Assembly: GCA_041158505.1 (NCBI GenBank)
Contig: JBEBBG010000007.1
Location: 27,879-91,878, forward strand
Reading direction: 5' to 3'
Length of the DNA: 64,000 nt
Source: Candidatus Parcubacteria bacterium
GTDB lineage: Bacteria > Patescibacteriota > Minisyncoccia > Phycocordibacterales > JAACPR01
Each line of letters begins with the position of its first letter. The stretch's first letter is position 1. The translations under genes and the position numbers were made by a program. The notes under the pieces were generated by a model. The model searched no databases and was not told the DNA's origin. It worked only from the letters and a program-made list of their open reading frames with translations. Positions 3,693-18,534 of the stretch are shown here, one piece after another.

Positions 3693-5222
3693 CATAGAAG
3701 TGATTTTAGACCCAGAAGAAGCTTTTACCGCATTGGTAAAGGCTTTTTTTGGTTCGAAAGTATTTTCATCCAAAATGAGTTTTTCATAGAGCTTTCGAAC
3801 TGGTGTTTTTAGCTCGTATTCCACCTTTCCGTCTTTGAGACTGATGTGTTTGAAGAGATGCTTCAAAAGCATACGCTTTTCAGCAGGCGTTCTCTTTGAG
3901 TAAATTTCTTTTGCCCTTGAAGCCAATTCAAGGATATTGAGACCTATCTCAAAGTATTCAGCTTCCTGCGTCTTGAGGCGTTCTAGCTGGGTTGTAAGAG
4001 CCTTTTGCTCATCAATAAGCACTTTGTGTTTACCAGTCCAAAACTCATCTGAAATAACCCCTGAAAGCTTGTCATCATAAAGCCTGTCAATTTTTACCTG
4101 AACCGCTTTGTATTGGGAATTGAGGCTATTTAGGACTGACTCTTTGTAGGCAACTTCTTCTGAGTGATTTGCCTTTATCTTTTCCCTGATTTGTTCAACA
4201 TCAGTCTTGGTAAGCTTGGCAAAAACATCCATCACGTTTACCAAACCTGACTCGATTACTTCTTCACGAGTGTATTTCTTTTGCTTACAGTCTTTGTAGT
4301 GATTACAGTGACAGTAAACGTGACCTTTTTGTATTTCCGAAGTGATACCTCCTCCACACTCACCACAAGTAATCATCTTGGAGAACAGGAACTCCTTTCG
4401 AAGATAGAATGGTGCTTTCTTTCTAATCCTGATTTCTTGGATTTGGTCATAGGTCTCTTTTGTGATGAGTGGTTCGTGGTCACCTTTCATCAGTTTTCCT
4501 TTCCAAGTAAACGCACCGTAATTGAAAGTATCTCCAAGCAATCTCTCAATCTGACTCTTGTAGAGTTTCTTTCCGTATCGAGTCCTCACGCCACTATCAG
4601 TAGCCATTTTGAGCAGAGCTTTCATTGAGTACTGACCTGTGGCATATGACTCAAGCAATTTCTTTACTGCAAGATTGGTTTCTGGGTCTTTGATGAAATG
4701 CTTTCTACCTTTTTCACCAACACTTTGGTATCCATACTTGAAAGAGCCAGGGTACATCCCTTGAGAAGCTTTCTCGTTCAATCCTTTGTGCACTTCTTCG
4801 GATAGATTATTTGTGTAGAAGCGAGCAATAGCTACTTTCATATCCCAAACAAGATTCTCGTGAGCACGAGTATTCTTATTCACAATAAAATTCTCTTTGA
4901 CGAAGTGAATGGTTCTGTCAGAGCTTTCCTGAACCCAATCGTTTACGGTAGCCGCATCTTTGAGATTTCGAGTAAGACGGTCAATCTTTTCACACAGGAT
5001 ATTTTCAATATCGTGCTTAGATGCATACTCAAGCATTTCATTGAAGATTGTTCTTATTTGCTTACCACTTGCTGACTCACTAATGCGAAAGATTTTAGCG
5101 ACTTTGAAACCTTTCTTTTCTGCATAATCCTCAAGCAGTTTCTGTTGAGCATCGAGAGAATAACCTGTATCTTCTTGTTCTCTTGATGACACTCGACAAT
5201 AAATAACGCAATTTGACTTCAT
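3540..5222 (-). CDS. Large serine recombinase (resolvase domain, recombinase domain, zinc ribbon, coiled coil)
   Basis: The N-terminus IYCRVSSREQ carries the catalytic Ser of the resolvase fold. A CGECGG...CHC zinc ribbon and a long coiled-coil tail follow. The last ~55 codons read antisense through tRNA exon 2 and the intron P7-P9 region, so the true C-terminus is uncertain. The gene is AT-rich. Confidence 0.85.
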   Translation of the reverse strand: MKSNCVIYCRVSSREQEDTGYSLDAQQKLLEDYAEKKGFKVAKIFRISESASGKQIRTIFNEMLEYASKHDIENILCEKIDRLTRNLKDAATVNDWVQESSDRTIHFVKENFIVNKNTRAHENLVWDMKVAIARFYTNNLSEEVHKGLNEKASQGMYPGSFKYGYQSVGEKGRKHFIKDPETNLAVKKLLESYATGQYSMKALLKMATDSGVRTRYGKKLYKSQIERLLGDTFNYGAFTWKGKLMKGDHEPLITKETYDQIQEIRIRKKAPFYLRKEFLFSKMITCGECGGGITSEIQKGHVYCHCNHYKDCKQKKYTREEVIESGLVNVMDVFAKLTKTDVEQIREKIKANHSEEVAYKESVLNSLNSQYKAVQVKIDRLYDDKLSGVISDEFWTGKHKVLIDEQKALTTQLERLKTQEAEYFEIGLNILELASRAKEIYSKRTPAEKRMLLKHLFKHISLKDGKVEYELKTPVRKLYEKLILDENTFEPKKAFTNAVKASSGSKITSMLPRQDSNLRPIDYINPKITSRDGLYHHLIQLLERRCEALRARDANYSLSR

Positions 5223-5487
5223 AAATATATTTTAGCTTAGTTTTTGATAATACTCACCCCTTTTCCTAATGATTTCATAGGAAATAAGAGAGATGTTTAT
5301 GTAGCCAGAATTGTGATAGTGACCTCCAAAGTTCCTCCAGATAAGCTAGTCTTTTTGACTTGGCGTTTCGCTTCTCCTTATTTTCTTTGAGGTTGTATCG
5401 GAGCATATCCGATGCAGGTCAGACGGCTGGGTGGCAAGGGGGCAACCATTTTCCCAGCTTTCGCACCTGAACCTGATATGCAACTTA

Positions 5488-5530
5488 TTGTTTGGTTTTG
5501 AGATTGAGCCGTAGTCTCAAAACTTTTAGC
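5488..5530 (+). terminator. Intrinsic terminator (9-bp stem GTTTTGAGA/TCTCAAAAC followed by TTTTAGC) with no annotated upstream ORF
   Basis: The hairpin is read directly from the sequence. Confidence 0.4.
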
Positions 5531-6309
5531 AGACTTGTTTAGCCTCTTTGTCGTGAAAAGAGGGTTCTTCTGACATTGTGATTAGCTTGCTCTCGCAAGA
5601 CTCTGGAAAAGGCTCTCCGTCAGCCAGAGAAGAGCCTTTTTCAATTTCCTGCGAATTAGAAAGTCTATGCTTTTTAGCATCTTCAAAATCAAATTGAGCC
5701 AACAGGTCAAAGAAACCCGCTAGCTCGGTGATAGAATCGTTGTTTGATTTTGATTGGCTGACTATTTCCATATCGCTACCAACTGGAGCGAGAAATATGT
5801 CTGCCTAATACAAAACGCGAACCATTAGGACAAGACGCATTTCTGCATCTAAGAGTCCATCGGTTCGCGTTCCCAATCTTTCAAGTTTCAGTCTGGCAAT
5901 TGAGTTCCTCCGACATCAAAAGTGTTAGACTTGAAACCACTGAACTGGGTGTGGCTTAGCAATAGTATGTATTCAGTTGTAACTAAATTTTAGCACAGGA
6001 TTATGTGAGCTCAAGTGGAAAATACAGAGCAACACAAAAGGATTTATATGACTAGAAAAGGGTTCAATAGACCCATATAGTAAAAAGGTATTTTCTGTTA
6101 TAATTTGCAGGACAACTGAATATGTCGACCTAACCCTTAGGGATTTTCTCTAAGGTATGGTCAAAAACGCGACGAACATAAAAACCCCATCATTAGGGCG
6201 TTCGTCGCGTTGTATCTGGAAACGGATATAGAGACCTTCGGGTCTTCCTAGTGGTGGGATTTTTGTGTCTCAGCCCTAGGTATTATCAATAAAATCGCGA
6301 CGAACGATT

Positions 6310-6495
6310 ATGACTACAATAAATTTAGGTCTGTTTATTTGGGGCTTATTACTTACGCTCCAAGTAATGCAAAATATGAAGCGGATAGATAAGCTTAGTT
6401 GGGACTTGGCTCATAAAATGGACAAGCCAGAAGAAGAAACTCCAACTGAAAAGTTTATGCGTGAGAGAAAGGAGAAGACAGAAACTAAAGGGTAG
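6310..6495 (+). CDS. Small hypothetical membrane peptide (61 aa)
   Basis: One N-terminal transmembrane helix and a charged tail. It is convergent with, and overlaps by 11 nt, the HTH gene. Confidence 0.3.
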   Translation: MTTINLGLFIWGLLLTLQVMQNMKRIDKLSWDLAHKMDKPEEETPTEKFMRERKEKTETKG

Positions 6496-6886
6496 CTTTG
6501 GCAATTTTTTGAGCAAACATTTCATCAAACATCTTCTTACTCCTATCCATAGACTCACGGAGTTCCTCACTAATTTCCTGACTCTCAACTCTCTGGGAGA
6601 ACTCATTTTTATATTTACGCTCAAGCCACCACGCTGAGGCTTGCCAGCTTTTCTCAGAAGCCTTTTCGATGTTCTTGATGTGTCTTCTTTTACACTCAAT
6701 CTCTTTTTGTCTTATTTGTTCTGAAAAGTCTGAATTCTGACGCTTCCACAACGACAAAGTATCCTCGCTAATTCCAGCAAGGATTGAGGCATCACGTTGA
6801 GTGAGACCATCAGCAATAGCATCAAGAATTATCTTGATAGTAGTGGGTGTTGCCTTATATGATTTTGGAATAAGAGGCTTTGCCAT
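6485..6886 (-). CDS. HTH DNA-binding protein, terminase small subunit (Terminase_2)-like
   Basis: IKIILDAIADGLTQRDASILAGISEDTLSLWKRQNSDFSEQI...SWQASAWWLERKYKNEF resembles the phage TerS-type HTH. Its start lies 3 nt after the protease stop, so it is likely co-transcribed. Confidence 0.5.
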   Translation of the reverse strand: MAKPLIPKSYKATPTTIKIILDAIADGLTQRDASILAGISEDTLSLWKRQNSDFSEQIRQKEIECKRRHIKNIEKASEKSWQASAWWLERKYKNEFSQRVESQEISEELRESMDRSKKMFDEMFAQKIAKATL

Positions 6887-6888
6887 AT

Positions 6889-9180
6889 TTATTTGTTTTC
6901 AACTCTAACTTCAGATTCAACCCGTATCTTGATTGGAACCAGTGCGTCATACTTGTTCACTATTTTTGAGTAGACATCAATGGACTCCTCAGAGCTTTCA
7001 ACGGTCAAAACAACAGCAAACCTGATTTTCCTGTTCTTATATCGAGTACCTCTTTCAAAGGCGTGTATATGAAAGAAAGGGTTGTCTATGTTCTCGATTT
7101 TCTTTCCTAAAGTTCGTGTATCAACGCTGTCCCATTTCAGGTCGGCACGCAATTCGTCTTCTGGAGCATAGGGTGCAGGAGCAGAATCAGGCACGGGAAA
7201 TTCAGACTGTTCCCAACCTGCATCAAGGAGACTTTGTACTTGAGCCGATTCGGTTCTCAAGTCCAGCACCTGCTTGCGTTCACCTTTCTTACTAAAACGA
7301 TATTTCTTTGAATTTGGATACAGGGTCATTACCACTGACGAAGCTGTATAGTCGTCAGGACTTTGCGGGTCAATTGCCGTTGATACAGCAATAGTCCATC
7401 TGAAGTTTACTTTGCCTCGGTCAATTGCATCATCCCAAGGTATCGTAAATTCAGCATATTTTTTTGGAAGCAATTCACCTTTGTATATCAGGGTGTAAGA
7501 ATTGCTTTTACAGGTTACGATTTCATCTACTGTTTCAGCCAAAATACCGTGACCCGTTTCATTGCTATGCTTCTTCTCTTCGGAGTCAGCACTGTGAATG
7601 AGGAGTGCTCTTGCGACAAGGGGGTCAATAGCACCGTCACTGTATCCAACTAACTGTCCTGCATATCCAGCGACAATAGGACTTGCAAAGCTTGTGCCTT
7701 GATTCCAAGCTTTCTCATTCAAGTTATGTGCAACAAGATGGATAGGGTGCTGGTCGCATCCTCCAAACGCCAATAGGTCTGGCTTTAGTTTATTACCCTC
7801 ACGCCCAGGACCTTTACAGCTATAAGGAGCACGAATTATCTTCCCATCTTTCTTTGTGTAAGAACCGATTCCTAGACCATTTGCCATATCTGAGGGGGCT
7901 TGTATTCTTCCAGCTGAACCACTGAGATGTCCGTCATTTCCTACAGCTACCGTAAAGAGCACATTCAATTTCGCACTGAGTAAATCGCAGGCAAAAGTGA
8001 ATCGTGAAATCAAATCATCTACAATCGGTCCCTTTGGACCAAGGCTGAGGTTCCAAACTTTTATATGCGGATTGAGAGGGACTGTCTCTTCAATCTCATC
8101 AATGATTTCGTATAGGTCTGGGTCGGAGGTATTTTGAACAGGAAGTACACGGAAGCTTTTGACACTAACCTTTGGAGTAGGGAGAGTATCGCTTGCCGAA
8201 TAATTATTTATTGCACCAAAAAGAACTGCTCCTGAAACTTGAGTTCCGTGATTTATGAATGCATCCGCTGATGCTTCTGTTGTCAGGTCTTCATTCTCAA
8301 CAAAACCTTGTAGGTATGGACTATCTTCTTTCACACCACCATCGAAGATTCCCACTACAACATCAGCCTTTTCTCCTGATGCAGGCGTTGGTCCACCACT
8401 AATAGAGCCTCCTCGGCTTACAGTCGGCAAATCACGCAAATCCATCGTATGGAGCGTTCTTAGTGGGTTGTATTCCGCAACAGTAGCAACAGTCTTCTTG
8501 GTCCCATACAAGCTCACAAAGGTGATGCCAGATTCGTATTGTTTATAACGAACTCTTCCCAAATCTACTCCTGACTTCTTTAGAAGCTCAAGAAAGTTAT
8601 TGAGTGCTTCTTCTTTGTCTTTTTCAAAAGGATGCAGAACTGCTTCTAGTCGCCCCTCGGTCCAATCACTTGGAATCCCTAGAATTTGTTCTTCAGATTC
8701 AAGCGTATCCACTGATTTGATTGTTCTAACATCATACGCAAAGCCTTTTGTTACAAAGGCTTCTTCCTGGCTGATTTTTTGTTCAAGCTCATTCAAGCCA
8801 CGCTCAGTTGTTCTGACGAAAAACAATTTACCAGTTTCTTCAATACCGTCTTCCTCAGGAGAATTTTCACGCCAGATTCTTGAACCGATTTCTTCTACCT
8901 CACCATTTCTAGAAACCGCAGAGAAAAGGTCTCCAGGATAGTAACTTTTTGCTGAAAATTCAGGATGCATTCTCACACAAACAACGAATTCGTGTGGGAG
9001 CTTTTTATCCGCAGGGATAGTACTGAGCTTCTCTCGGGTCTGGGTGATGTCTGACAAAATTTTTGTTCTTGCCACATCATAGGAAAGAGCAGGCTCCTTT
9101 GAAGAGCCTCCGACTCTTTTCGTGATTGGTTTTGTATATATTTCTCCTTTGTAGAGAATTGGTCGGCGGTTATTTTCCAT
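6889..9180 (-). CDS. S8 family (subtilisin-like) serine peptidase, 763 aa, with extra N- and C-terminal domains
   Basis: The catalytic triad is in the correct order: VVVGIFDGGV (Asp), HGTQVSG (His) and GTSFASPIVAG (Ser). Confidence 0.85.
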   Translation of the reverse strand: MENNRRPILYKGEIYTKPITKRVGGSSKEPALSYDVARTKILSDITQTREKLSTIPADKKLPHEFVVCVRMHPEFSAKSYYPGDLFSAVSRNGEVEEIGSRIWRENSPEEDGIEETGKLFFVRTTERGLNELEQKISQEEAFVTKGFAYDVRTIKSVDTLESEEQILGIPSDWTEGRLEAVLHPFEKDKEEALNNFLELLKKSGVDLGRVRYKQYESGITFVSLYGTKKTVATVAEYNPLRTLHTMDLRDLPTVSRGGSISGGPTPASGEKADVVVGIFDGGVKEDSPYLQGFVENEDLTTEASADAFINHGTQVSGAVLFGAINNYSASDTLPTPKVSVKSFRVLPVQNTSDPDLYEIIDEIEETVPLNPHIKVWNLSLGPKGPIVDDLISRFTFACDLLSAKLNVLFTVAVGNDGHLSGSAGRIQAPSDMANGLGIGSYTKKDGKIIRAPYSCKGPGREGNKLKPDLLAFGGCDQHPIHLVAHNLNEKAWNQGTSFASPIVAGYAGQLVGYSDGAIDPLVARALLIHSADSEEKKHSNETGHGILAETVDEIVTCKSNSYTLIYKGELLPKKYAEFTIPWDDAIDRGKVNFRWTIAVSTAIDPQSPDDYTASSVVMTLYPNSKKYRFSKKGERKQVLDLRTESAQVQSLLDAGWEQSEFPVPDSAPAPYAPEDELRADLKWDSVDTRTLGKKIENIDNPFFHIHAFERGTRYKNRKIRFAVVLTVESSEESIDVYSKIVNKYDALVPIKIRVESEVRVENK

Positions 9181-9181
9181 A

Positions 9182-10315
9182 TTATTCTTGTTTAGCTATA
9201 TGGTACTGAACTCCACCTGGACTGAATCCTGTGATTTCGGCTAACTCTCTTACAGTGATTTCATTTCCCAACATCTGTTTAGCTAGTATGCAAAATTTTC
9301 CTTTGGTGTCTTTATCGTTTGTATATGCTTCTACGGCGTGAAGAATTGCCTTTGGCATATCCTCATCTTTCAAGACAACTCTACGCTTGATATTTTCAGC
9401 CAAACGACATAGGTCAGCAGGGCTTCTATTCACCAGTAACTCCGCTACTGCGGGCATAAAAGCTTCGTCTTTCTTGGACAAAAATTCTCCTAACTCGTTT
9501 TTTAGAATCTGAATTCTCTCATTCTGCTCTGGTAGACCTAGCTCAAGAACGTGGTCAAAACGTCTCCATATTGCTCGGTCCAAGAGTTCAGGGTGATTGC
9601 TTGTAGCAATAACTACCGATGAGACTGGCCACGATTCAAGCTCCATAAGCAAAACGTTCACAACTCTTTTGATTTCTCCCAAGTCAGTGGAGTCATCTCG
9701 TCTTTTAGCAATTGCATCAAACTCATCCAGCAAAAGAACAGCTGAACTTTGTCGGGCATATTCCAAAACTTTCTTTAGGTTTTGCCCCGTCTTTCCCAAT
9801 AGGCTTGAAATACTTGTAGACAAATCTAAAACTATCAAATTCTTATTCAAAGCTGATGCTATGTATCGAGCAAGCATCGTCTTGCCTGTACCAGGTAGTC
9901 CTGTGAGCAGGAGTCCTGTGGAAGGCTTGATACCTTTATCGAGCAAGTGAGATATTTTTTCTCTCTCGTGCAAAAAACTATCAACAACCTCTTTCAAAAC
10001 TGGGCTTAGAATTGGAAAGGTGTTGCGTTCAGTATCTGGAGGGAAAATAGTTGCCATCTCCAGTCGACTATCTGAATCAGTGGGGATAGGAGTGTTCACA
10101 CCTCGTGTGAAAGATGGGTTGAGAGAGTGGGAGCTTAGTGTAAAAATTATTTTCTTTGCCAACTCAGGCTCAGAAGCTTTTATCAATCGAGATAGATTGA
10201 GTGCATATGCTTCTACTTCGTCATTCTTCTTTTTCAGACCTGAAATAATCAGGTCAATCAGAGTCTTATCGTATGCTGAAACTTTAGTTGTTTTTTTGGT
10301 CATATGTAAATTCAC
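9182..10315 (-). CDS. Classic AAA+ ATPase with a C-terminal HTH
   Basis: Walker A is GLPGTGKT, Walker B is LLLDEFDA, and the second region of homology is SNHPELLDRAIWRRFD. The C-terminus ITVRELAEITGFSPGGVQYHI is HTH-like. Its stop is 2 nt before the protease start. Confidence 0.85.
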   Translation of the reverse strand: MNLHMTKKTTKVSAYDKTLIDLIISGLKKKNDEVEAYALNLSRLIKASEPELAKKIIFTLSSHSLNPSFTRGVNTPIPTDSDSRLEMATIFPPDTERNTFPILSPVLKEVVDSFLHEREKISHLLDKGIKPSTGLLLTGLPGTGKTMLARYIASALNKNLIVLDLSTSISSLLGKTGQNLKKVLEYARQSSAVLLLDEFDAIAKRRDDSTDLGEIKRVVNVLLMELESWPVSSVVIATSNHPELLDRAIWRRFDHVLELGLPEQNERIQILKNELGEFLSKKDEAFMPAVAELLVNRSPADLCRLAENIKRRVVLKDEDMPKAILHAVEAYTNDKDTKGKFCILAKQMLGNEITVRELAEITGFSPGGVQYHIAKQE

Positions 10316-10357
10316 TAAACAAAACTACATAAATACCCTTATATACATACGATATCT

Positions 10358-11149
10358 TTGTTTAGTAAATTCATTATATTATCTATAACTAAACAAGTAC
10401 AGTATTTTCTGTGGAAAAGTGCACGCTATACCAGTAATTCTTGCATCTGTCCTAATGCAATATTTGGAAACGGATATTCCTCTGCCCAATTCACGGTTCG
10501 TAAATCGTCTACAAGAGCGAGCATGCAAATATTAATAGAGCCAATTATAAACGATAAGATCCAACAGGACATAGTACAAGGTGAAAAATTTTTCCTGAGC
10601 TTGCGCGTGACAAATAAAACAATTACTCCTAGTGAAAATTTTACAATTGAATCAATGGTCTTGTTTTATAAACAGTCGGATATTGTAGACGATTGTGAAA
10701 ATAAAAGTTATTTTATAAGAAAATTAAACCCTGATGAATCTTTAACATTAGAAATAGGGTATTTTGTCGCAATTGTACATGGATTAATCAGTTTAAAAAT
10801 AAATGCTCGGTCAGAAAATAATACTCCAATAAGCTTTTTACAATCCCAGCATAAAATTGGAACTAAGCAAATAATCAACAATCCTAACGAATGGATTGAT
10901 TTTCTGTGGGTAGAAAGTAAGAGTGAGAACAATCAGAAAAAAACTAATATTATTACTTTGTGGTTGAACATATTATTGCTTTTTATTGCATCCATTCAAA
11001 TACAGGAAAAGATTAATATTCAAGATTTCTTTAAAAACGTAATCTTTAAATCTAATACATACAAAGAATCAGATTTTCTAGTATTAATTTTAAGTATATT
11101 GATTTCATTAAGTGCTTTAATTTTCTTTAAAAAGAAAGATAGATTCTAA
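10358..11149 (+). CDS. Hypothetical protein, very AT-rich (~28% GC), with a C-terminal TM helix. The true start may be the internal Met near 10520.
   Basis: Only the ORF itself; no recognisable domain. Confidence 0.3.
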   Translation: MFSKFIILSITKQVQYFLWKSARYTSNSCICPNAIFGNGYSSAQFTVRKSSTRASMQILIEPIINDKIQQDIVQGEKFFLSLRVTNKTITPSENFTIESMVLFYKQSDIVDDCENKSYFIRKLNPDESLTLEIGYFVAIVHGLISLKINARSENNTPISFLQSQHKIGTKQIINNPNEWIDFLWVESKSENNQKKTNIITLWLNILLLFIASIQIQEKINIQDFFKNVIFKSNTYKESDFLVLILSILISLSALIFFKKKDRF

Positions 11150-11176
11150 AAATAAGCCAAATATAACAACCCACTG

Positions 11177-11208
11177 CACTGGTTCGAGCCAAACGCAGTC
11201 CGCGGAGC
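11177..11208 (+). repeat. Cassette-boundary repeat, copy 1 (CACTGGTTCGAGCCAAACGCAGTCCGCGGAGC)
   Basis: First of 10 co-oriented copies of the 32-34-nt motif. It precedes the first cassette. Confidence 0.8.
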
Positions 11209-11271
11209 ATCTGAAAAATACCTTTTAATCAATAACGAGTAGAATTTCAAAGCTTTTGCTATACTGCCGAT

Positions 11272-11982
11272 ATGAAATTCGATAAAACTAAACTAGAGGA
11301 GTATCTCAAAGCATTCTTTCAAGAATACGAAGTAAACGGTCTGCTTTCTGTGTACCTGTGGGGTTCAATCACTACAGGCGAATTTGCTATTGAGACAAGT
11401 GATATAGACATTATCGCAATAGTTAGACCAGAGCATTCAATTGACCAATCTGCTATCAAAGAAAAACTTAATGCATGTTTTGATGATTTCAAACATTTCG
11501 GATTTAACGTAATCAGAGAAGATGAACTAACAGAAGGAGTCGGGAAAGAAAGTTCAATTACCACGGTGATACATCCACGGATACTTCTTGCTGATATGCG
11601 AGATTGGAAGCACGTGTTTGGAAATAACTACTCAATTAGCAGCTTTACGACGAACCCTCCACTGCCAGATGAATTAATCGGTTTGGAAATAAAGAAAATA
11701 ATCAGAGACGGTTGGAACGATTCAGCAAATGTGGGAGACAATTTTGTACAATATCATCTCAAGGGAATTATGCGAATCATTTACTATACTCAACTCAAGC
11801 GTCATGAACACTTCCCTTTTTCTTACACAAACATAAGACAGAAAGCCAACAAAGAAGAAGCCAATCTAATTGACTTTTTTTATGAGAACAAAGAAAAGGG
11901 ATACAGTAAACAACACCTCTTAGAGAATAAGTTTTTAGTAGACTCCTATATAAAGAAAATGATAGAGGAGTTTACAAAATAG
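11272..11982 (+). CDS. Nucleotidyltransferase-fold protein (ANT/AadA/Lnu-like, Pol-beta superfamily)
   Basis: LWGSITTGEFAIETSDIDIIAIV matches the GS-x9-13-DxD nucleotidyltransferase signature. Its 236-aa size is similar to aminoglycoside and lincosamide nucleotidyltransferases. Confidence 0.55.
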   Translation: MKFDKTKLEEYLKAFFQEYEVNGLLSVYLWGSITTGEFAIETSDIDIIAIVRPEHSIDQSAIKEKLNACFDDFKHFGFNVIREDELTEGVGKESSITTVIHPRILLADMRDWKHVFGNNYSISSFTTNPPLPDELIGLEIKKIIRDGWNDSANVGDNFVQYHLKGIMRIIYYTQLKRHEHFPFSYTNIRQKANKEEANLIDFFYENKEKGYSKQHLLENKFLVDSYIKKMIEEFTK

Positions 11983-11994
11983 TCACAAACTCAA

Positions 11995-12026
11995 CACTGG
12001 TTCGAACTAAACCAAGTCCGCGGAGC
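11995..12026 (+). repeat. Cassette-boundary repeat, copy 2
   Basis: CACTGGTTCGAACTAAACCAAGTCCGCGGAGC. Confidence 0.8.
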
Positions 12027-12094
12027 GCGGTTGACAAAGTAAAAATCTAGTGATAATTTCCAAACGGTCTTAGTTCAACAAAAACCAAACGTCA

Positions 12095-12430
12095 ATGACA
12101 GGAATCAGAAAACCATCGGACGGAATCGTCGCGCTTACCTGTGAACCCGATGCATCCCCCGTTGCACAGCTAGCCGATACAGCAGAAGCCACTGCTTGGA
12201 CCGAAGAGGTGCTCGCGGCAATTACAAAGGAGCTCACAGATCCACGTAATGCCTACCGCGCACCAGAACATCCCCTGCGAGCTTACCTGGATTCACTCAA
12301 GCTGCTGTTGGAGAAACTTCAGACGAGGCAGCCCGTCGAGCTCTGGGAAGTGCATCGGGAGTTAGCAAGGGCAAACTCTCAGTTTCACGACGACAGTTTT
12401 ACCGAAGCGTGCACGCTGCTGTTCGGATAA
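12095..12430 (+). CDS. Hypothetical cassette protein (111 aa, ~55% GC)
   Basis: An ORF between two repeats, followed by a terminator. Confidence 0.4.
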   Translation: MTGIRKPSDGIVALTCEPDASPVAQLADTAEATAWTEEVLAAITKELTDPRNAYRAPEHPLRAYLDSLKLLLEKLQTRQPVELWEVHRELARANSQFHDDSFTEACTLLFG

Positions 12431-12501
12431 ATTCACAGCCGCCCAACATGCTACCCCTACTTATCAAGCAAGGGGTACGCTTTTTCTTTTCTACCCCACC
12501 A

Positions 12502-12533
12502 CACTGGTTCGAGCTAGCTCAAGTCCGCTGAGC
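12502..12533 (+). repeat. Cassette-boundary repeat, copy 3
   Basis: CACTGGTTCGAGCTAGCTCAAGTCCGCTGAGC, preceded by a hairpin and TTTTTCTTTTCTACCCC. Confidence 0.8.
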
Positions 12534-12674
12534 TCTTGTAAATAAAAAATATAATTTAGTCTCTACATACTATAGTTCTTGATACTCACCTATTTTTGTT
12601 TAGTTTTCCACATACACAAATGGACCCATGATTAATGAGGCCATTTATGTATAAAACTACTTATACAAGTTATA

Positions 12675-13052
12675 CTATTGAACAAGCATAACGCCGCTAT
12701 GTACGCCTAAGTTGTAGGCTGTTCTAAGTGCTTCGGCTAGTGAGTTGGCCATAACACTGGTGCGTTGACCTGAAGTGTTTATAAACTCATACACGTGCGC
12801 CCCTTGTCCCATCGAAACTTGGCCACCAGCAATAGAAGTATCACCTCTCACAAGCATAACGCCACTATGTACGCCTAAGTTGTAGGCTGTTCTAAGTGCT
12901 TCAGCTGATGAATTAGCAACAACACTAGTGCGTTGATTTGAACTGTTTATGAACTCATACGTAGAAGCTTCCGCAAAATTTGCAGATCCTAGAGTTAGCA
13001 TAAGCGCACCTAACATAAACAATCCCGATGCAACATTTGTTTTTTTATTCAT
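12675..13052 (-). CDS. Secreted hypothetical protein with an internal ~56-aa tandem duplication
   Basis: Signal peptide MNKKTNVASGLFMLGALMLTLGSANFA. The two repeats are YEFINSSNQRTSVVANSSAEALRTAYNLGVHSGVMLV and YEFINTSGQRTSVMANSLAEALRTAYNLGVHSGVMLV. This is the only minus-strand gene in the array. Confidence 0.5.
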   Translation of the reverse strand: MNKKTNVASGLFMLGALMLTLGSANFAEASTYEFINSSNQRTSVVANSSAEALRTAYNLGVHSGVMLVRGDTSIAGGQVSMGQGAHVYEFINTSGQRTSVMANSLAEALRTAYNLGVHSGVMLVQ

Positions 13053-13533
13053 CTTTTTTTATTATTATTTTTTAATAAGCAAAGATATCTACTACATTTT
13101 TTGATAAAATATCAAAATGCATAGTCTTCAATATTTGAGAGTTACAGATAGTTTTTATAAATAACTGTAATAGACAAAATAGATTTTCAACCACTAATCT
13201 ATATTTTCGATAGATGCTCTTGCTACATATAAAAGTGTATACAATATATTGACAAAAAGCAAGTTTAATTGCATTATGACACACAAATACCAACCATACT
13301 AATCTCACCCTTTCTATTTACCCTCTTCCAATTCAAAGTTCTGTTTTTATTTCTCCTCTCCCGAACTAGTTCAAACGGAAGTAGACTCATTAGCACGCGT
13401 GGGTCTTTTTCTTTCTTGTTGAACGATACGAGTACACACTCAGCGCGGCATACACCCATCCTTGACTTCCCCACCTTTTAAAACTAATGTCGTTTAAGAT
13501 CCTAGACACACCACACAACCCACTTACAGAATC

Positions 13534-13800
13534 ATGAGTGATACCGTTACACGCATTGGTGACATGAACGCAATCCGCTGGCTTCTCGTCATGCGCCAAA
13601 GTGATGGCGACATTATTGTTCGGATTGTACAAGAGGGCGAAGTCGTCGGAGGAGAAGACTATGGCAATCCAATGGTTCCTTCTGCGGAAGTCGAATTCTG
13701 CCTTAGTGGCGGCAGGAGCAAGCACACTCGTGTAGCACTGCTTGCCTTAATGGAAGCAATGGAGCGAGATAACCAAGAACGCCCCATACCCTACGACTGA
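13534..13800 (+). CDS. Hypothetical cassette protein (88 aa)
   Basis: An ORF with a terminator at 13831-13867. Confidence 0.35.
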   Translation: MSDTVTRIGDMNAIRWLLVMRQSDGDIIVRIVQEGEVVGGEDYGNPMVPSAEVEFCLSGGRSKHTRVALLALMEAMERDNQERPIPYD

Positions 13801-13874
13801 ACCGCGAGAAGCAGCCCAAATACTCACACAGCCTCTGAACCCCAAACGTCAGAGGTGTTTTCTTTTCTACCCCA

Positions 13875-13906
13875 CACTGGTTCGAGCGAGTTGCAGTCCG
13901 CGGAGC
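13875..13906 (+). repeat. Cassette-boundary repeat, copy 4
   Basis: CACTGGTTCGAGCGAGTTGCAGTCCGCGGAGC. Confidence 0.8.
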
Positions 13907-13978
13907 ACTTTGACAATTTCTTAATTTAGTTTTAAAGTTTTTTCTAGACAAAAAATAACATCAACCTGAAAGGAGGCA

Positions 13979-14356
13979 TTGATGCCAGAAGATATTTACG
14001 ATTTAGAGGGTGAGGCAAGCTCCTTTGGAGATTACATTAACGCTTGGTACTTGCCAATTAGCAACCTTATGTCACGGCGAAAACAATGGGATGAAGCAAC
14101 CCTATTCAACTGGATAGAAGCTCATCCCATACAATCATTCACCTTGAGGTACGGGGGTGGCAAAAGTTCTTCAATGGAATGGTGTTTCACCAAATACCCC
14201 ACTCGAGTAGCTCGCCTAGATAGACTCTCCGAACTAGCCAACTCGTGCAAGGACATCACGGAGTTTAAGCGTATCTGCAATGAACTTTTTCGATTGGTGA
14301 ATGGTAGAGTTGCGTTTCCTGGAGAATTGTACAACCCCGACCTACTTGAATTGTGA
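13979..14356 (+). CDS. Hypothetical cassette protein (125 aa)
   Basis: An ORF followed by a terminator and repeat. Confidence 0.4.
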   Translation: MMPEDIYDLEGEASSFGDYINAWYLPISNLMSRRKQWDEATLFNWIEAHPIQSFTLRYGGGKSSSMEWCFTKYPTRVARLDRLSELANSCKDITEFKRICNELFRLVNGRVAFPGELYNPDLLEL

Positions 14357-14418
14357 AACAAGCCTCGCGAAGCTTCGACTTCGGTTGGGACTTTCGTGTT
14401 TTTCTTTCTACCCCACCA

Positions 14419-14450
14419 CACTGGTTCGGACTAGCTCAAGTCCGCGGAGC
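14419..14450 (+). repeat. Cassette-boundary repeat, copy 5
   Basis: CACTGGTTCGGACTAGCTCAAGTCCGCGGAGC. Confidence 0.8.
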
Positions 14451-14503
14451 CCTGACTTAAATCTTATCTTTCAATTGTATTCGGAACTGCTAAGATTAAT
14501 TAC

Positions 14504-15112
14504 ATGAAAATCATTTTGACCATAATTACAGTGCTATGCATTTGTGCTGCTTCTATTTTATATTTTTCACCGAAAACAGAGACTGAAACAACAATGAGTA
14601 CTTGGAAAACGTACACAAATACATTTTATGGTTTTACCCTTAAGTATCCTCGTGACATGTTTGTACTAGGGTGGCCCCTCGATTTTGAAATACACCAACC
14701 CTTACCAACTGAAAATGGTTACAATAATCAAATATTTATTACTCCATCAAGAACGATAAGCGATGTAGATCGTGATTACATGGCAATTCGTTTTGCCGAA
14801 GATGTGCGCAATGATACCCGCTCAATTCAGCAGCATTTCAAAGAAGATGCCCGATTCGTGACACACAATGTAGAAGATATAAGAACAATTAACGGTGTTG
14901 ATTTTATTTTTATAAGAACTGAACAAGGTGATTCAATCGCATATTTCAAAGTAAATGGCTACATTTTAAGCGCTGAGATGGACAAAAATTTCCCCAGCCA
15001 GGAACTGTTCATGGAAATCCTAGACACATTTGAAGTTGTGCCCAAAACTAAGCAAGAGATAGATTCTAATGTTTTTCCAAAAGGACCACCTAAAATTGAT
15101 GGCAGCATTTAG
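14504..15112 (+). CDS. Hypothetical membrane-anchored/secreted cassette protein (202 aa)
   Basis: An N-terminal TM/signal sequence. The gene is AT-rich. Confidence 0.4.
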   Translation: MKIILTIITVLCICAASILYFSPKTETETTMSTWKTYTNTFYGFTLKYPRDMFVLGWPLDFEIHQPLPTENGYNNQIFITPSRTISDVDRDYMAIRFAEDVRNDTRSIQQHFKEDARFVTHNVEDIRTINGVDFIFIRTEQGDSIAYFKVNGYILSAEMDKNFPSQELFMEILDTFEVVPKTKQEIDSNVFPKGPPKIDGSI

Positions 15113-15158
15113 AATTGACTCAATATTCTAGCTTGGTCAACATTTTAATACCCCACCG

Positions 15159-15190
15159 CACTGGTTCGAGCGAGCGTCAGTCCGCAAAGC
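15159..15190 (+). repeat. Cassette-boundary repeat, copy 6 (variant ending CGCAAAGC)
   Basis: CACTGGTTCGAGCGAGCGTCAGTCCGCAAAGC. Confidence 0.75.
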
Positions 15191-15253
15191 TACCATTTGA
15201 CATATTATATTAAATATGTTTTTATTTTGTAAATTCAACAGAAGGAGTAACAA

Positions 15254-15640
15254 TTGAAAAGAAAGAAGAAAACAAAAGGAGTTTTGGGAGACCAAGGAGT
15301 AAAGATCAAGCAGCCAGTGCCAACAACAACCATTTCTCAAGAGGGGATTGCCTCCAGAAAACCACTGAGAAGATTTGGTATCAACTTCAGGCACAGAGGA
15401 CACTACTTCTGGTTTCTGGTTTCGACAACAATCTTGCTTGCAAGCGTTGTCGCCAGTGGTGTCGGCGGTAATCCAGTTTGGATTTCCATGGCTGGACTCT
15501 TTTTCCTCCAATCTAGCCTGGCGGCTGTTTTCGATACCAGAATGGGCACACGGGAGACCAGGTTATTCTCGGTTGACTGCATATGGTTCAACGGCCTGAT
15601 GGGAGGGATTTGCATCTTTATCACGAAAATATTCTTTTAA
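15254..15640 (+). CDS. Hypothetical membrane cassette protein (128 aa)
   Basis: Predicted TM helices. Confidence 0.35.
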   Translation: MKRKKKTKGVLGDQGVKIKQPVPTTTISQEGIASRKPLRRFGINFRHRGHYFWFLVSTTILLASVVASGVGGNPVWISMAGLFFLQSSLAAVFDTRMGTRETRLFSVDCIWFNGLMGGICIFITKIFF

Positions 15641-15730
15641 TGATTTGCCGATTTTTCAAGATAAATCGGAAGAGGCCCCTGATTACGTTACGTAATTCAC
15701 GGGGCTTTCGTGTTTTTCTTTTCTACCCCA

Positions 15731-15762
15731 CACTGGTTCGAGCGAGCGTCAGTCCGCGGAGC
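15731..15762 (+). repeat. Cassette-boundary repeat, copy 7
   Basis: CACTGGTTCGAGCGAGCGTCAGTCCGCGGAGC. Confidence 0.8.
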
Positions 15763-15835
15763 AAATATTGACTTAATCAAAAATAAGTGCTATAAAAAAT
15801 ACAACTGTTTTTTCCAATTCAACCCCCTTTTAACA

Positions 15836-16393
15836 ATGAAAACATTTCTGGTAACAGACAGGTTCTCTGAGTACCTACAGGGGGTCAAAGACCTCCAAGC
15901 AAGAAACCACAAGGACGTCGTCGGGACGAGCGAGCGAGGATTCCTAACCTGCCAGTTTTCAGTTGAAGAAATCGGCCGATTTGCTAGCGAAGCTGGCATT
16001 ATCGTCGTGACAGACGATAATGGGAGTCGAGTTCTCGGCTACAACATCCTCCTGACCATCGAGCGGACTCTCACCTACCCTGCGTACAGAGGTTTGGTGC
16101 ATGCTTACCAAGAGCTGCGTCCTGAATGCGATTTGTCAAAGGTGCTGTTGGCACGACAGTACTGCGTTGACGAAAGTGCAAGAGGTGGCCCTGCGGTGAA
16201 GTCTCTATACGACGTCATGCGGTCAAAGGTGTGCATTCCTCACGGGTACACATACTCAATCGGTGAAATCGATGAGCGCAACCGCATCAGCATGGTGGCA
16301 GCAAGAAGACTCCTGGGTTACACATTTATCGGCTCTTACCAGTCCGATGGAATAACCTGGAACATCGGAGAACGTCTTGAAATCCCTGCTTGA
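15836..16393 (+). CDS. Hypothetical cassette protein (186 aa from the internal Met MKTFLVTDR)
   Basis: The ORF-track start at 15710 lies inside the preceding repeat/terminator, so the Met at 15836 was chosen. Confidence 0.4.
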   Translation: MKTFLVTDRFSEYLQGVKDLQARNHKDVVGTSERGFLTCQFSVEEIGRFASEAGIIVVTDDNGSRVLGYNILLTIERTLTYPAYRGLVHAYQELRPECDLSKVLLARQYCVDESARGGPAVKSLYDVMRSKVCIPHGYTYSIGEIDERNRISMVAARRLLGYTFIGSYQSDGITWNIGERLEIPA

Positions 16394-16469
16394 TGTCGAC
16401 GACAGTTTCAACCCCGCCCAGTAGCGCAAGCGAACGGCGGGGTTCATCTTTTTTATTTCTACCTCATCA

Positions 16470-16500
16470 CACAGGTTCGAACCAACCCAAGTCCACAGAT
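16470..16500 (+). repeat. Cassette-boundary repeat, copy 8 (degenerate)
   Basis: CACAGGTTCGAACCAACCCAAGTCCACAGATC. Confidence 0.55.
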
Positions 16501-16544
16501 CAAAATTGACTAAAATATAAAATATCTATAGCGTGTGATGGAGC

Positions 16545-16877
16545 ATGAAAGAACCTCTACCAGACATAACCCTGGAGGTGTGGCGAGACAAGGAACTCAT
16601 GTACCATTGCCGTACACACTTCAACAAAATTAAGCAGACTCAAAACCCTGCTCCCGTCCCCACCATTGACCAGTTGTTGACACTCATTACCAGCGTAATC
16701 AACTCAACTGACTCGATGATTATGCCAATACCAGAAACTGCTATCGATGAAAGATTTAAGCCTGTTGATGTTCAGGTTATAAACCAAAGAGAGCATCCAT
16801 TGGAAAGCGGGGACTTGGAAGCAGTAAAGGAGTGCGTCTTGCAATCCGAAGCAAATTGGTTTGATGAGAGTTTGTAA
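16545..16877 (+). CDS. Hypothetical cassette protein (110 aa)
   Basis: An ORF between repeats. Confidence 0.4.
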   Translation: MKEPLPDITLEVWRDKELMYHCRTHFNKIKQTQNPAPVPTIDQLLTLITSVINSTDSMIMPIPETAIDERFKPVDVQVINQREHPLESGDLEAVKECVLQSEANWFDESL

Positions 16878-16943
16878 TATTTTAAACTAAACCCTTGTAG
16901 CCGCGTCGACTTTCCACAGTTGCGTGGTTTTTCTTTTCTATTC

Positions 16944-16976
16944 CACGCTGATTCAAACCAACCTCAGTCCGCGGAG
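16944..16976 (+). repeat. Cassette-boundary repeat, copy 9 (degenerate)
   Basis: CACGCTGATTCAAACCAACCTCAGTCCGCGGAG. Confidence 0.55.
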
Positions 16977-17035
16977 ACCTTGTAAAGCAACGTAAAAAAA
17001 ATTTATTTAACAAATAATTTTGATAAAATTCTCTT

Positions 17036-17314
17036 ATGAAGAAAAATTTTAAATCACAGGGAGCAGTAAAACTATTTCCACAAAAAGGTGGATGGGTGTA
17101 TTTGCCAGTAAAACAAACTTATTCTGATTTAGGAATTACAAAACCCAAATGGGGTTTGGTTCCAGCAACAATTACAATCGGAAACACTACTTGGAAAAAA
17201 TCACTTTTACCAATGGGAGACGAAACTTTATTCATTGCTTTAAATGAAAAAGTAAGAAAAGCTGAAAATATAAAAATTGGAGATACAATAACAGCTACTT
17301 TTACATTAGATTAG
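17036..17314 (+). CDS. DUF1905-like small protein
   Basis: KGGWVYLPV...GLVPATITIGNTTWKKSLLPMGDETLFIALNEKVRKAENIKIGDTITATFTLD matches the DUF1905 pattern. Confidence 0.5.
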   Translation: MKKNFKSQGAVKLFPQKGGWVYLPVKQTYSDLGITKPKWGLVPATITIGNTTWKKSLLPMGDETLFIALNEKVRKAENIKIGDTITATFTLD

Positions 17315-17399
17315 TTCTGAAGTACTAGATTCGGAAGAAACCCCTGATTACGTAAGGTAATTCAACGGCTTTCGTGTTTCTCTTTTCTACCCCACCGCA

Positions 17400-17428
17400 C
17401 TGGCTTGATCCAGCCTCAGCTGCTTGTA
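17400..17428 (+). repeat. Cassette-boundary repeat, copy 10 (degenerate; last in the array)
   Basis: CACTGGCTTGATCCAGCCTCAGCTGCTTG. Confidence 0.5.
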
Positions 17429-17488
17429 ACTATTTACAATTCAGTATTTTTATGTTTTTATACTGCCTGGCTATTGTACCCACACATC

Positions 17489-18415
17489 ATGAAAAAAACG
17501 TCTGTTACCATAATTGTAACCCTCACCATCCTAATCTTGTGCCTTTGGCACTACCAAAGGATCAAGGTCGTGCCAACTACCCCTTCACCGGCATCAACCG
17601 TGGAAACACAGGTGGTGGAGACACCGCCGGTGGTAAACCCTCTCCAAGGGATTGCCTCGATCGAGCAGACACTCACACAACTGAACGCCTCGCTCGACCT
17701 GCTCGAACGAGAAGCGAGCACCGATGCGCTGCTGATGAAGTTCATTCGCGAATACCGCGAACAGCAAATCTCGGCAGTGGACTTTGACACGAGTTTCAAG
17801 AAGCTGCGTGACATGCCTGTCGATATCATCCCGATGTTGCACATGGCATACGGCATCAGCGACGAAGATGCATCCCATGTCACCGCTCTGCAACAGAATA
17901 TCGCGGAGATTGTCCGCAACAAGCACACCTTGTTCTGGACGGAAGATTTCTGCGGCGGAAAGGTTGTTACCAAGGAGAACGCGTGGGAGGAAGTCCGAAC
18001 GGAATTCCAGAACACAACCATCCCGATGACTACGAATGATTTGAGCAAGGCATCGATTGATGCCTACCTTGAACAAATTCGGCCTTTCTCGGCTGCTCAG
18101 CAAGTCATCCATGAGCCCGGAGTAACCACGGTGATGGGCGGCGACTATCGCCCACTCAAAAACATCCACCAGAGACTGCTGGAGTACGCTGCTCATGCCG
18201 ATCGTGGCACACTGCCTTCCGCCCTTGACCCCAGAAGGATGCCCCTGCTCCGCACCGTGCTGAGTAAAGGCCGTGACCTCTACCTGCTTCGGTACATTGC
18301 CGAGCATGGCAGCCAGGAACCACAGGTGATCGTCTTCGGCGCCGCCCACACGGAACACCTCAGTGAACTGCTGAGCTTCTACCAAGCAGGCGGGCAATTT
18401 CTGGTCATCCAGTGA
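17489..18415 (+). CDS. Hypothetical TM-anchored protein (308 aa from MKKTSVTII), ~57% GC. A possible TraB/GumN/ChaN-like C-terminal GxxH motif is seen, at low confidence.
   Basis: N-terminal TM helix; C-terminal VIVFGAAHTEHL. It is followed by a hairpin at 18421-18457 plus a U-tract, but no repeat. Confidence 0.4.
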   Translation: MKKTSVTIIVTLTILILCLWHYQRIKVVPTTPSPASTVETQVVETPPVVNPLQGIASIEQTLTQLNASLDLLEREASTDALLMKFIREYREQQISAVDFDTSFKKLRDMPVDIIPMLHMAYGISDEDASHVTALQQNIAEIVRNKHTLFWTEDFCGGKVVTKENAWEEVRTEFQNTTIPMTTNDLSKASIDAYLEQIRPFSAAQQVIHEPGVTTVMGGDYRPLKNIHQRLLEYAAHADRGTLPSALDPRRMPLLRTVLSKGRDLYLLRYIAEHGSQEPQVIVFGAAHTEHLSELLSFYQAGGQFLVIQ

Positions 18416-18534
18416 AAATGGATCACGTCCGACGCAAGGAAGTTCCTCGCGTCGGACACTTTTTCTTTTCTACTATAATTCTGAGTGTATGCAGAAACCT
18501 TGACGAACCACCTGCGTAGGGGTAGCGTTGTGAT

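Follow-up and report, generated by a model that had tools for sequence, protein, structure and literature searches.

The DNA analysed is a 64,000-nt stretch (the window) of contig JBEBBG010000007.1 from a Candidatus Parcubacteria bacterium. In this window, a gene for asparagine transfer RNA (tRNA-Asn) is followed by an element that encodes a large serine recombinase (LSR), with ~12 recombinase-less units, mostly of one gene each, arrayed behind that element and delimited by copies of a 32-nt repeat. An earlier note, written from the sequence alone, had described the repeats and units as an integron-like array. The description of the array as a series of co-oriented, mostly single-gene units, each closed by a recombination-type site, stands; the attC/attI framing does not, and the evidence presented below argues that the array was probably assembled by LSRs at tRNA-Asn.

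The tRNA-Asn gene and the recombinase element

Exon 1 of tRNA-Asn(GTT) (3362–3395, + strand), homologous to the intact tRNA-Asn genes of the related loci L026, L028, L040 and L045, is separated from exon 2 (3655–3693, +) by a group I intron in the anticodon loop (3396–3654, +; Rfam RF00028 Intron_gpI, 80.8 bits, E = 6.7e-21), the boundaries of which were set by exon mapping. The joined exons form a 73-nt tRNA-Asn that is recognized by ARAGORN, but because of the 259-nt intron the unspliced gene is missed by this program. The 3′-end of exon 2 (3672–3693), GTTCGAAT-N9-GGAGC, has the form of an attB-type short arm. An array starts right behind tRNA-Asn in the window and in every relative in which the start of the array is visible (L026, L028 and L040), and in L040 the tRNA is located just upstream of a nucleotidyltransferase gene that is shared with the window. 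The anchor of the array is therefore tRNA-Asn and not an attI site, as the earlier note had supposed. The def and fmt genes, a PPIase gene, a hibernation factor gene, a PF1765-like gene and tRNA-Asn are syntenic in the window, L026, L045, L048 and L050. In L048 and L051, only the 3′-half of tRNA-Asn is seen, preceded by intron-like sequence, and a group I intron in tRNA-Asn may be common in this lineage.

The LSR gene is present in its integrated form (3540–5222, −; Pfam Resolvase 2e-25, Recombinase 1.1e-12, Zn_ribbon_recom 6.6e-6), with an open reading frame (ORF) that continues antisense through the 3′-exon of the tRNA (...KITSMLPRQDSNLRP...). The Joint Genome Institute (JGI) annotation has no call for this 560-aa ORF. 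A split-off LSR C-terminal tail (MLALVDDLRTVNWAEEYPFPNIALGQMQELLV*) is encoded at 10426–10524 (−), as identified by tblastn to LSR tails in the attP state (P0053, E = 3.9e-11; P0064, 64.5% identity, E = 1e-10), and the element's own P arm, the attR, is at 10496–10524 (+) with the sequence GTTCGTAA-N14-CGAGC. Both junctions carry the core GAGCAT, at 3690–3695 (attL) and at 10519–10524 (attR). The LSR element of the window thus appears to span ~3696–10524, and at ~6.8 kb is close in size to the 6.98-kb circle L052. A right end at 11176, with the first repeat as its arm, was considered and is ruled out by the split tail. The earlier note had placed a serine recombinase 6 kb upstream of the array; the gene is indeed an LSR gene, but it is not merely nearby as the element abuts the array. 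The element also encodes IetS, a subtilase (6889–9180, −; PADLOC IetS 1.1e-62, Pfam Peptidase_S8), and IetA, an AAA ATPase (9182–10315, −; PADLOC IetA 1.7e-85, Pfam AAA), and with this IetAS cargo (6889–10315), which is directed against phages and plasmids, would be a mobile defence island at tRNA-Asn.

LSRs of this type are abundant, with 1269 homologues detected at E<1e-40, mostly in Paceibacterota/Patescibacteria. Among the best 120 of these, 28 run on into tRNA antisense, most others stop within the acceptor antisense (...LLRG*, ...MLPR*) and 5–7 carry a longer, attP-type tail such as LLALADDFRTIDWVREYPFPTIALKEIRDLLIAT. All six of the integrated members inspected (window, L045, L047, L048, L050 and L051) adjoin the 3′-end of tRNA-Asn, and in L045 and L050 LSR tails are present at places that correspond to that of the window's tail. 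The contig L052 is 6,979 nt long, its ends overlap by 30 nt and its LSR ORF passes through a long-type arm, GTTCTAAA-ATCGTCTGCCAACG-CGAGCA (GTTCTAAA-N14-CGAGCA); it is probably circular and a free form with an intact attP, although its LSR is a 54%-identical relative of the window's and not the same element. The LSR of L041 has the same attP arrangement. From these comparisons, the LSR gene is predicted to span attP, such that integration would replace a C-terminal tail of ~30 aa by tRNA antisense or an early stop and excision would restore it. This change of C-terminus on integration might play a part in directionality control.

The L041 LSR (Ga0609857_000033, a 391-kb contig), which with its intact attP is part of a much larger genome, is 73% identical to the window's, and the same protein is encoded on a 3.78-Mb contig. 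Around it are genes for a tyrosine integrase of the Bacteroidota style, LigD, RadC and a Dam methylase, with no tRNA, and it may be carried on another mobile element or have been transferred beyond hosts of the Candidate Phyla Radiation (CPR).

Repeats, their coding signature and half-site geometry

A search of the window for CACTGGTTCGAGC-N6-MAGTCCGCGGAGC with ≤3 mismatches returned seven near-perfect matches, all on the + strand, at 11177, 11995, 12502, 13875, 14419, 15159 and 15731, and none in shuffled window sequence. Half-motif searches and alignment located three degenerate copies at 16470, ~16946 and 17398. All ten co-oriented copies listed in the earlier note were therefore recovered, eight at the positions given there and two at slightly different positions (~16946 for 16944 and 17398 for 17400). 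The number of mismatches in the seven strict repeats, from the tRNA-proximal to the distal end, is 0, 1, 1, 0, 2, 2 and 0, with the copies beyond these degenerate; erosion of the repeats grows with distance from tRNA-Asn, as fits insertion at the tRNA end. The T-rich tract TTTTCTTTTCTACCCC directly precedes seven of the copies. An additional, eroded repeat, ACTAGTTCAAAC-N14-TAGCA, was read by eye at 13364–13395, where nhmmer support is weak, and divides the long cassette at 12534–13906 into two. The site at 10496–10524 is related to the repeats yet distinct, being the resident recombinase's own arm. At 18477–18499, there is a possible eroded 'type-2' site, its likeness to the type-2 sites of L040 being judged by eye and with low confidence. 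Pattern and profile searches found no similar copy in the window outside 10496–18499, so that the confinement of the repeats to this locus, proposed as a check in the earlier note, holds over the 64 kb, and an Rfam search of 9–21 kb of the window returned no family for the repeat.

When translated antisense, in the frame of the LSR gene, the ten window repeats and those of relatives encode (M/L)LRGLxL(A/V)RTSV(V)G*. For 30 distinct type-1 repeats, 31% of the pairwise differences are synonymous in this frame versus 4–18% in the other five. The N6 of the nucleotide motif is one hypervariable codon plus a Leu codon, a position at which five synonymous codons are used in 28 of the 30 distinct repeats. 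The C/A ambiguity of the motif is the third position of a Leu codon (CTG/CTT), a CCA indel is one in-frame codon and the CTA of CTACCCC is an in-frame stop. The repeats of L045 encode LQRWEDVRT..., like the real LSR tails of P0051 and P0119, and the type-2 sites encode LLPLLDxFRTLNW. This signature ties every repeat to an LSR attP, and suggests that the repeats are either fossil coding sequence from LSR genes or coding ends that such genes still use; their conservation extends past a 25-bp half-site because they also encode the LSR tail. The unit of ~60 nt, judged in the earlier note to be of attC size, in fact corresponds to the C-terminal coding tail of the recombinase, with its stop codon, in antisense.

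A T-loop block, GTTCGA, and a terminal GGAGC(A) are present both in tRNA-Asn and in the repeat, but whereas the tRNA 3′-end is GTTCGAAT-N9-GGAGC, the repeat is GTTCGARC-N14-GGAGC. The spacing is N9 in all seven tRNA-Asn genes and N14 in all 27 strict repeat matches, from five lineages, and is kept at N14 although the 14 nt differ between lineages; N14 is also the spacing in the attP of L041 and of L052. In L028, tRNA and repeats share the 12-mer GTCCGCGGAGCA without a mismatch, yet its position is shifted by 5 bp between them. In serine integrases, the motif bound by the zinc-ribbon domain occupies positions 16–24 of an attP half-site and positions 11–19 of an attB half-site, which puts it nearer to the centre by 5 bp in attB (Rutherford et al. 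2013, PMC3783163). As the +5-bp offset matches this difference, the tRNA end looks like the B arm and the repeat like the P arm of one enzyme, with crossover near GG|AGCA, and the 32-nt motif is then predicted to be the P arm, one half attachment site, of an LSR attP. The reverse assignment, with crossover in the T-loop and GGAGCA as the distal block, was rejected as it would put the long arm inside the tRNA and so destroy the tRNA; it is also contradicted by the observed arrangement of attL and attR.

The repeat is conserved in sequence and spacing, not in structure. When seven repeats were folded as DNA, each on both strands, the z-scores ranged from −2.2 to +1.3 and the structures differed; in the L028 variants, ACTGG and the 3′-part do not covary. 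An RNA or single-stranded DNA hairpin (ACTGG...CCAGT, CGGACT-N6-AGTCCG), tried as a candidate, was discarded for want of covariation and of a consistent fold, as was the attC reading of the earlier note, the repeat having no R′′-L′′/L′-R′ palindrome. A Xer/dif-like site of 13+6+13 was also rejected, as the apparent spacer varies as codons do. In phmmer searches of six-frame ORFs from the window and six array loci, the queries XerD and IntI1 had no match at E≤10. Pfam searches identified no tyrosine recombinase among 20 flanking and cassette ORFs, nor among the matches listed for the other 49 ORFs. The earlier note had also detected no IntI-like recombinase in the window and had suggested that a serine recombinase might serve the cassettes, a suggestion that is borne out. 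Features characteristic of LSR systems are present: the domain architecture of the protein encoded at the element end, the 5-bp rule in the left arm, attL and attR, and, in a relative, a probably circular attP form.

Serial insertion at tRNA-Asn and competing explanations

A search with the exact pattern of one genome per species, for 185,579 species, identified one genome with multiple matches and 22 others with single matches. The former is a Candidatus Paceibacterota metagenome-assembled genome, in which all seven matches are in one 8-kb stretch. A metagenome scan added four array loci, and the multi-copy matches lie in arrays, whereas a scan of viral contigs for the motif returned no match. 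Restriction to one locus in the window and one such stretch in the assembled genome is not the distribution of a dispersed repetitive extragenic palindromic (REP) or terminator-type element, the case that the earlier note had named as refuting its reading. Independent assemblies from four samples are identical to the window over the array, which is not, therefore, an assembly artefact. Comparison of relatives, also advocated in that note, revealed a fixed chromosomal locus with a cassette content that differs between the window, L026, L028, L040 and L045. The window and L026 have flanking synteny and one cassette in common, with all other cassettes different, and a DUF6790 cassette has different neighbours in the L025 and L028 arrays, the site downstream of it being partly deleted in L025. 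Tandem units that end in P arms are also present in L026, L028, L045 and L050, and the cargo of relatives includes a toxin-antitoxin pair (L028) and kinase, NYN and NUDIX genes.

We consider it probable that this is a tRNA-Asn-anchored accretion array, built by serial insertions mediated by LSRs of a family very common in Paceibacterota. In the free circle, the LSR gene would read across attP, with the gene body (P′) on one side of a GAGCA(T) core and, on the other, a P arm of ~27 bp, GTTCGARC-N14-(G/C)GAGC, that would encode the LSR C-terminal tail in antisense. The B arm of the target would be the 3′-end of tRNA-Asn, in which the recognition blocks are 5 bp closer (GTTCGAAT-N9-GGAGC). Crossover in the core, just where the tRNA ends, would leave the tRNA intact, split off the LSR tail and place the P arm at the far end of the insert, and each new insertion behind the tRNA would push older units outward, so that the tRNA would be followed by the newest unit, a P arm, an older unit, a further P arm and so on. 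For the window, this newest unit would be the complete 6.8-kb LSR element with IetAS, with the ~12 units and their progressively eroded P arms behind it. Excision that joined 10524 to 3696 would restore the full LSR ORF in frame, ending ...KITSMLALVDDLRTVNW.... The small units would have been delivered by LSR recombination, either in trans or as passengers left behind through use of an alternative P arm, and the system may still be moving cassettes.

A more tentative proposal, possible but rather doubtful in our judgement, is that LSR elements shuttle single-gene cassettes, with excision via any downstream P arm picking up the intervening cassettes and excision via an internal P arm dropping the element's distal cassette. 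The end-site of each cassette would then also serve the recombinase gene as an alternative final coding segment, and the coding constraint on the repeats would be explained. If this is true, integron-like gene capture by a serine recombinase, in which the enzyme is mobile and a tRNA gene is the dock, is widespread in CPR bacteria. In L050, a type-1-like P arm (3757–3783, −) is positioned between the LSR and the best-matching long tail (2267–2356); this inner arm could be either an internal cassette site, as the pick-up and drop-off model needs, or the sign of two stacked elements.

Several observations weigh against serial insertion. The starts of the small cassettes are unlike an LSR P′, and the right half-sites are poorly defined, with a mirrored motif (6–7 of 9 positions) in the right arms of only the closest LSR relatives. 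A canonical LSR requires both half-sites and does not carry out recombination between attP and attL; repeated insertion at an occupied tRNA would therefore require relaxed right-arm specificity or some other step. Cassette 1 is common to the window and L026, whereas nothing distal to it is, and this is not predicted by pure insertion at the tRNA end; loss, exchange or independent deposition must therefore be added. The arrays of L026, L028 and L040 are without an LSR in the stretch covered, and none of the best 120 of the 1269 LSR homologues ends in the short tail, MLRGLxLARTSV(V)G*, that corresponds to the window's ten repeats. There is also no strain-level cassette polymorphism in the species assemblies L031–L039, identified by exact look-ups with three window proteins, all of which are identical, and the 90%-identity clusters of eight cassette proteins are all singletons.

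The alternative that survives best, although we think it unlikely, is decay. Each repeat would then mark a former complete LSR element that has lost its recombinase and most of its genes, and the array would be a graveyard rather than a device for gene capture. Since every repeat encodes an LSR tail, each was once part of an LSR attP, as decay would have it; L026 has an orphan long tail inside its array, with several genes and no LSR there, the distal repeats are eroded, and the identical assemblies and singleton clusters just described offer no sign of present-day polymorphism. Random deletions, however, would not leave units that start exactly at the core a dozen times over. Every small unit begins exactly at the core (GGAGC/A), followed 2–7 nt on by a promoter-like TTGAC box or by a conserved ~70-nt leader that is also found behind the tRNA, a precision that fits site-specific delivery better than random decay. 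Decay is also difficult to reconcile with units that are uniformly one gene long and with the presence of the DUF6790 unit between different neighbours in two arrays.

Much less probable is that the repeats are regulatory or insulating modules (terminator, operator and promoter) that are shuffled by homologous recombination with no dedicated recombinase, like the promoter early stem-loop (PeSL) elements of T4-type phages. A TTGAC box is positioned within 16 nt (at 2–7 nt) after 11 of 34 repeats versus a background of 1.1%, a GC-rich hairpin and T-run precede most repeats, and the GGTTCGAACC palindrome recurs in a second promoter type. Homologous exchange between repeats of 30–60 nt probably does add to the reshuffling. 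But the distance from repeat to −35-like box varies from 2 to 7 nt, no other promoter in the window has the motif, and the tRNA anchoring, the strict N14 versus N9 and the antisense coding signature would all be left unexplained. Nor is a generic promoter/terminator scan enriched in the array (16 versus 14.3 expected; 10 versus 7.9 expected), so that the promoter and terminator calls, which are consensus readings at particular positions, rest on this position-specific reading. On that reading, the cassettes look like self-contained expression units, each with its own promoter-like box and usually a terminator-like hairpin.

Action by a tyrosine recombinase encoded elsewhere, either tRNA-targeting or of the Xer type, with the repeats used as arm, 6-bp spacer and arm, is more improbable again. 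Tyrosine integrases classically target tRNA 3′-ends, a division of the motif into 13 + 6 + 13 nt is possible and the L026 copy contains CGGACT-N6-AGTCCG, but this inverted repeat is absent from the window's copies and the would-be spacer varies as codons. Islands of such integrases leave exact copies of the tRNA 3′-end, whereas the repeats differ from it by +5 bp and in bases of the T-stem and acceptor. No such enzyme was found by phmmer in the window or related loci, and the data are explained by an LSR whose ORF a site of the same type completes. The least credible reading is the classical integron array, a cluster of attC sites lacking an integron integrase (CALIN) with IntI elsewhere in the genome: co-oriented small unrelated genes of mixed GC content, each closed by a repeat, and the toxin-antitoxin genes of L028 would fit, but the repeats have neither imperfect palindrome, R′′/R′ cores nor consistent fold on either strand, are conserved in sequence and spacing, mimic the 3′-end of tRNA-Asn and encode an LSR tail, the units have their own promoter-like boxes and usually terminator-like hairpins where integron cassettes are mostly promoterless, searches of the 64 kb and of 10 related loci found no IntI/Xer-like protein, and literature on such integrons in Patescibacteria was not found.

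For accretion by LSR insertion, the closest mechanistic analogue would be the composite island of the staphylococcal cassette chromosome (SCC) and the closest architectural analogue the integron. In SCC composite islands, successive elements are arranged in tandem between direct repeats, with recombinase-less pseudo-elements in the same array. The window resembles these in having one LSR element and ~12 LSR-less units, each ending in a P arm. In SCC/SCCmec, as here, an LSR (Ccr) inserts DNA into a conserved housekeeping gene at its 3′-end, and the gene survives the insertion (PMC12648241). The window's LSR is likened to Ccr by LSR architecture only. The SCC target is rlmH (orfX) and its elements are of 10–60 kb, whereas here the target is tRNA-Asn, the single-gene units are of 0.45–1.1 kb, the recombinase ORF spans attP, the repeat is a C-terminal coding fragment and the host is a CPR bacterium.

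With integrons, including sedentary chromosomal integrons and CALINs, the array shares a fixed platform, co-oriented and mostly single-gene cassettes each with a 3′ recombination site, a cargo of unknown, toxin-antitoxin and small secreted proteins, a content that differs between relatives and a suggested polarity with the newest unit proximal. Integrons employ a tyrosine recombinase, an attC fold and the cassette promoter Pc, whereas here there are a serine recombinase, double-strand sequence motifs and own promoters and terminators; the anchor is a tRNA, and the recombinase is itself on a mobile element and absent from some arrays. The tRNA-Asn target, the single-gene units, the expression signals within each unit and the spanning of attP by the recombinase gene together set this system apart from both SCC and integrons.

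The serine integrases of temperate phages (A118/LI, Bxb1, phiC31) have the same Resolvase/Recombinase/zinc-ribbon architecture, attL and attR, a core of a few bp and a distal block that the P arm places 5 bp further out than the B arm does (PMC3783163). They differ in that there is one prophage per site, whereas here there are arrays, a tRNA 3′ target, a split integrase gene and loose right half-sites. Tandem islands at tRNA genes and cis-mobilizable elements (CIMEs), which depend on tyrosine integrases, also accrete at a tRNA 3′-end with tRNA-related direct repeats and recombinase-less units that can be mobilized in trans; here the repeats are +5 bp from the tRNA end, the enzyme is of another family and the units have single genes. 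No description of an integron-like or LSR-tRNA system in Patescibacteria was found in the searchable literature.

The genomes of CPR bacteria (Patescibacteria) are tiny, and the scope for gene exchange in these organisms is considered to be small. A dedicated, recurrent accretion locus behind tRNA-Asn, served by an LSR family with >1,200 detectable members, would be a main route to accessory and defence genes for them. The sites provide natural illustrations of the 5-bp attP/attB geometry of serine integrases, and the change that integration would bring to the C-terminus of the integrase may be relevant to the control of directionality. For genome engineering, recombinases of this kind, which are compact, target a tRNA gene and have defined sites, are sought, and the locus would indicate that an integron-like architecture can arise on a recombinase that is not a tyrosine recombinase.

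Cassettes and further features

All cassettes are listed in array orientation (+). Cassette 0 (10523–11208) has a 208-aa membrane-like ORF (10523–11149, 29% GC) with its ATG inside the core, identified as a JGI gene call mapped from L031 (9252–9878), and ends with repeat 1 (11177–11208). Cassette 1 (11209–12026) has a nucleotidyltransferase-like ORF (11272–11982; Pfam NTP_transf_2, weak at E = 1.7e-4) with orthologues in L026 (77% aa identity) and L040 (72%), and repeat 2 (11995–12026). In cassette 2 (12027–12533), a 111-aa ORF (12095–12430, 55% GC) is followed by a hairpin, TTTTCTTTTCTACCCC and repeat 3 (12502–12533). Cassette 3a (12534–13395), closed by the eroded repeat at 13364–13395, contains a reverse-oriented gene for a 125-aa repeat protein (12675–13052, −) with homologues in the L029 and L025 arrays that are always opposite to the array direction; the gene has an internal duplication of 111 nt (12682–12792 versus 12850–12960, 88% identical). 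Cassette 3b (13396–13906) has an 88-aa ORF (13534–13800) and repeat 4 (13875–13906), and cassette 4 (13907–14450) a 124-aa ORF (13982–14356) and repeat 5 (14419–14450). The 202-aa ORF of cassette 5 (14451–15190; ORF 14504–15112, 36% GC), with an N-terminal hydrophobic segment, precedes repeat 6 (15159–15190), and the 128-aa membrane-like ORF of cassette 6 (15191–15762; ORF 15254–15640) precedes repeat 7 (15731–15762).

The distal cassettes have degenerate ends. Cassette 7 (15763–16501) has a 185-aa ORF (15836–16393) and repeat 8 (16470–16501), cassette 8 (16502–16977) a 110-aa ORF (16545–16877) and repeat 9 (~16946–16977), and cassette 9 (16978–17429) a DUF1905 ORF (17036–17314, 31% GC; Pfam DUF1905, E = 4e-15) and the strongly degenerate repeat 10 (17398–17429). 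At the array's distal end, the 308-aa ORF of cassette 10 (17430–18499; ORF 17489–18415, 53% GC) is followed by a hairpin, TTTTTCTTTTCTAC and the possible type-2 site at 18477–18499. The units thus mostly have a single gene, as described in the earlier note, but with the ORF at 12675–13052 on the minus strand not every copy closes a plus-strand ORF. The GC content is mixed, although the ORFs range from 25% to 55% GC, versus ~48–50% in the surrounding genome, rather than over the ~28–58% of that note. Two cassette ORFs have Pfam matches, that of cassette 9, which confirms the DUF1905 assignment, and that of cassette 1, for which the match to a nucleotidyltransferase is weak.

Immediately upstream of the LSR, in all five elements examined (window, L045, L041, L047 and L050), is a gene for a small protein with the motif FFDLLA(R/K/Q)FD(F/Y)ED, recognized by blastp among LSR neighbours. 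It is at 5526–5771 (−) in the window, where the protein has 81 aa, with relatives in L045 (9424–9684), L041 (9739–9999), L047 (5053–5271) and L050 (9329–9514); blastp among the five gave E from 1e-7 to 6e-21. The protein belongs to no Pfam family and may be a recombination directionality factor or a regulator.

The sequence TAGAAGT(A/G)ATTTTAG is present both at the 3′-end of the intron (3632–3646) and after the tRNA, in the P′ arm of the LSR (3695–3709), and so brackets the 3′-exon. A conserved second leader of ~70 nt follows the tRNA and some repeats (L026 ~11140–11230, −; L028 128–200; L025 10170–10225, −; L040 440–480) and ends in a perfect palindrome, AAGGTTCGAACCTT, fused to an extended −10 (TGGTATAAT). 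An attachment-arm block, GGTTCGAAC, is also present inside the promoter of this leader, which suggests binding by the recombinase or a regulator.

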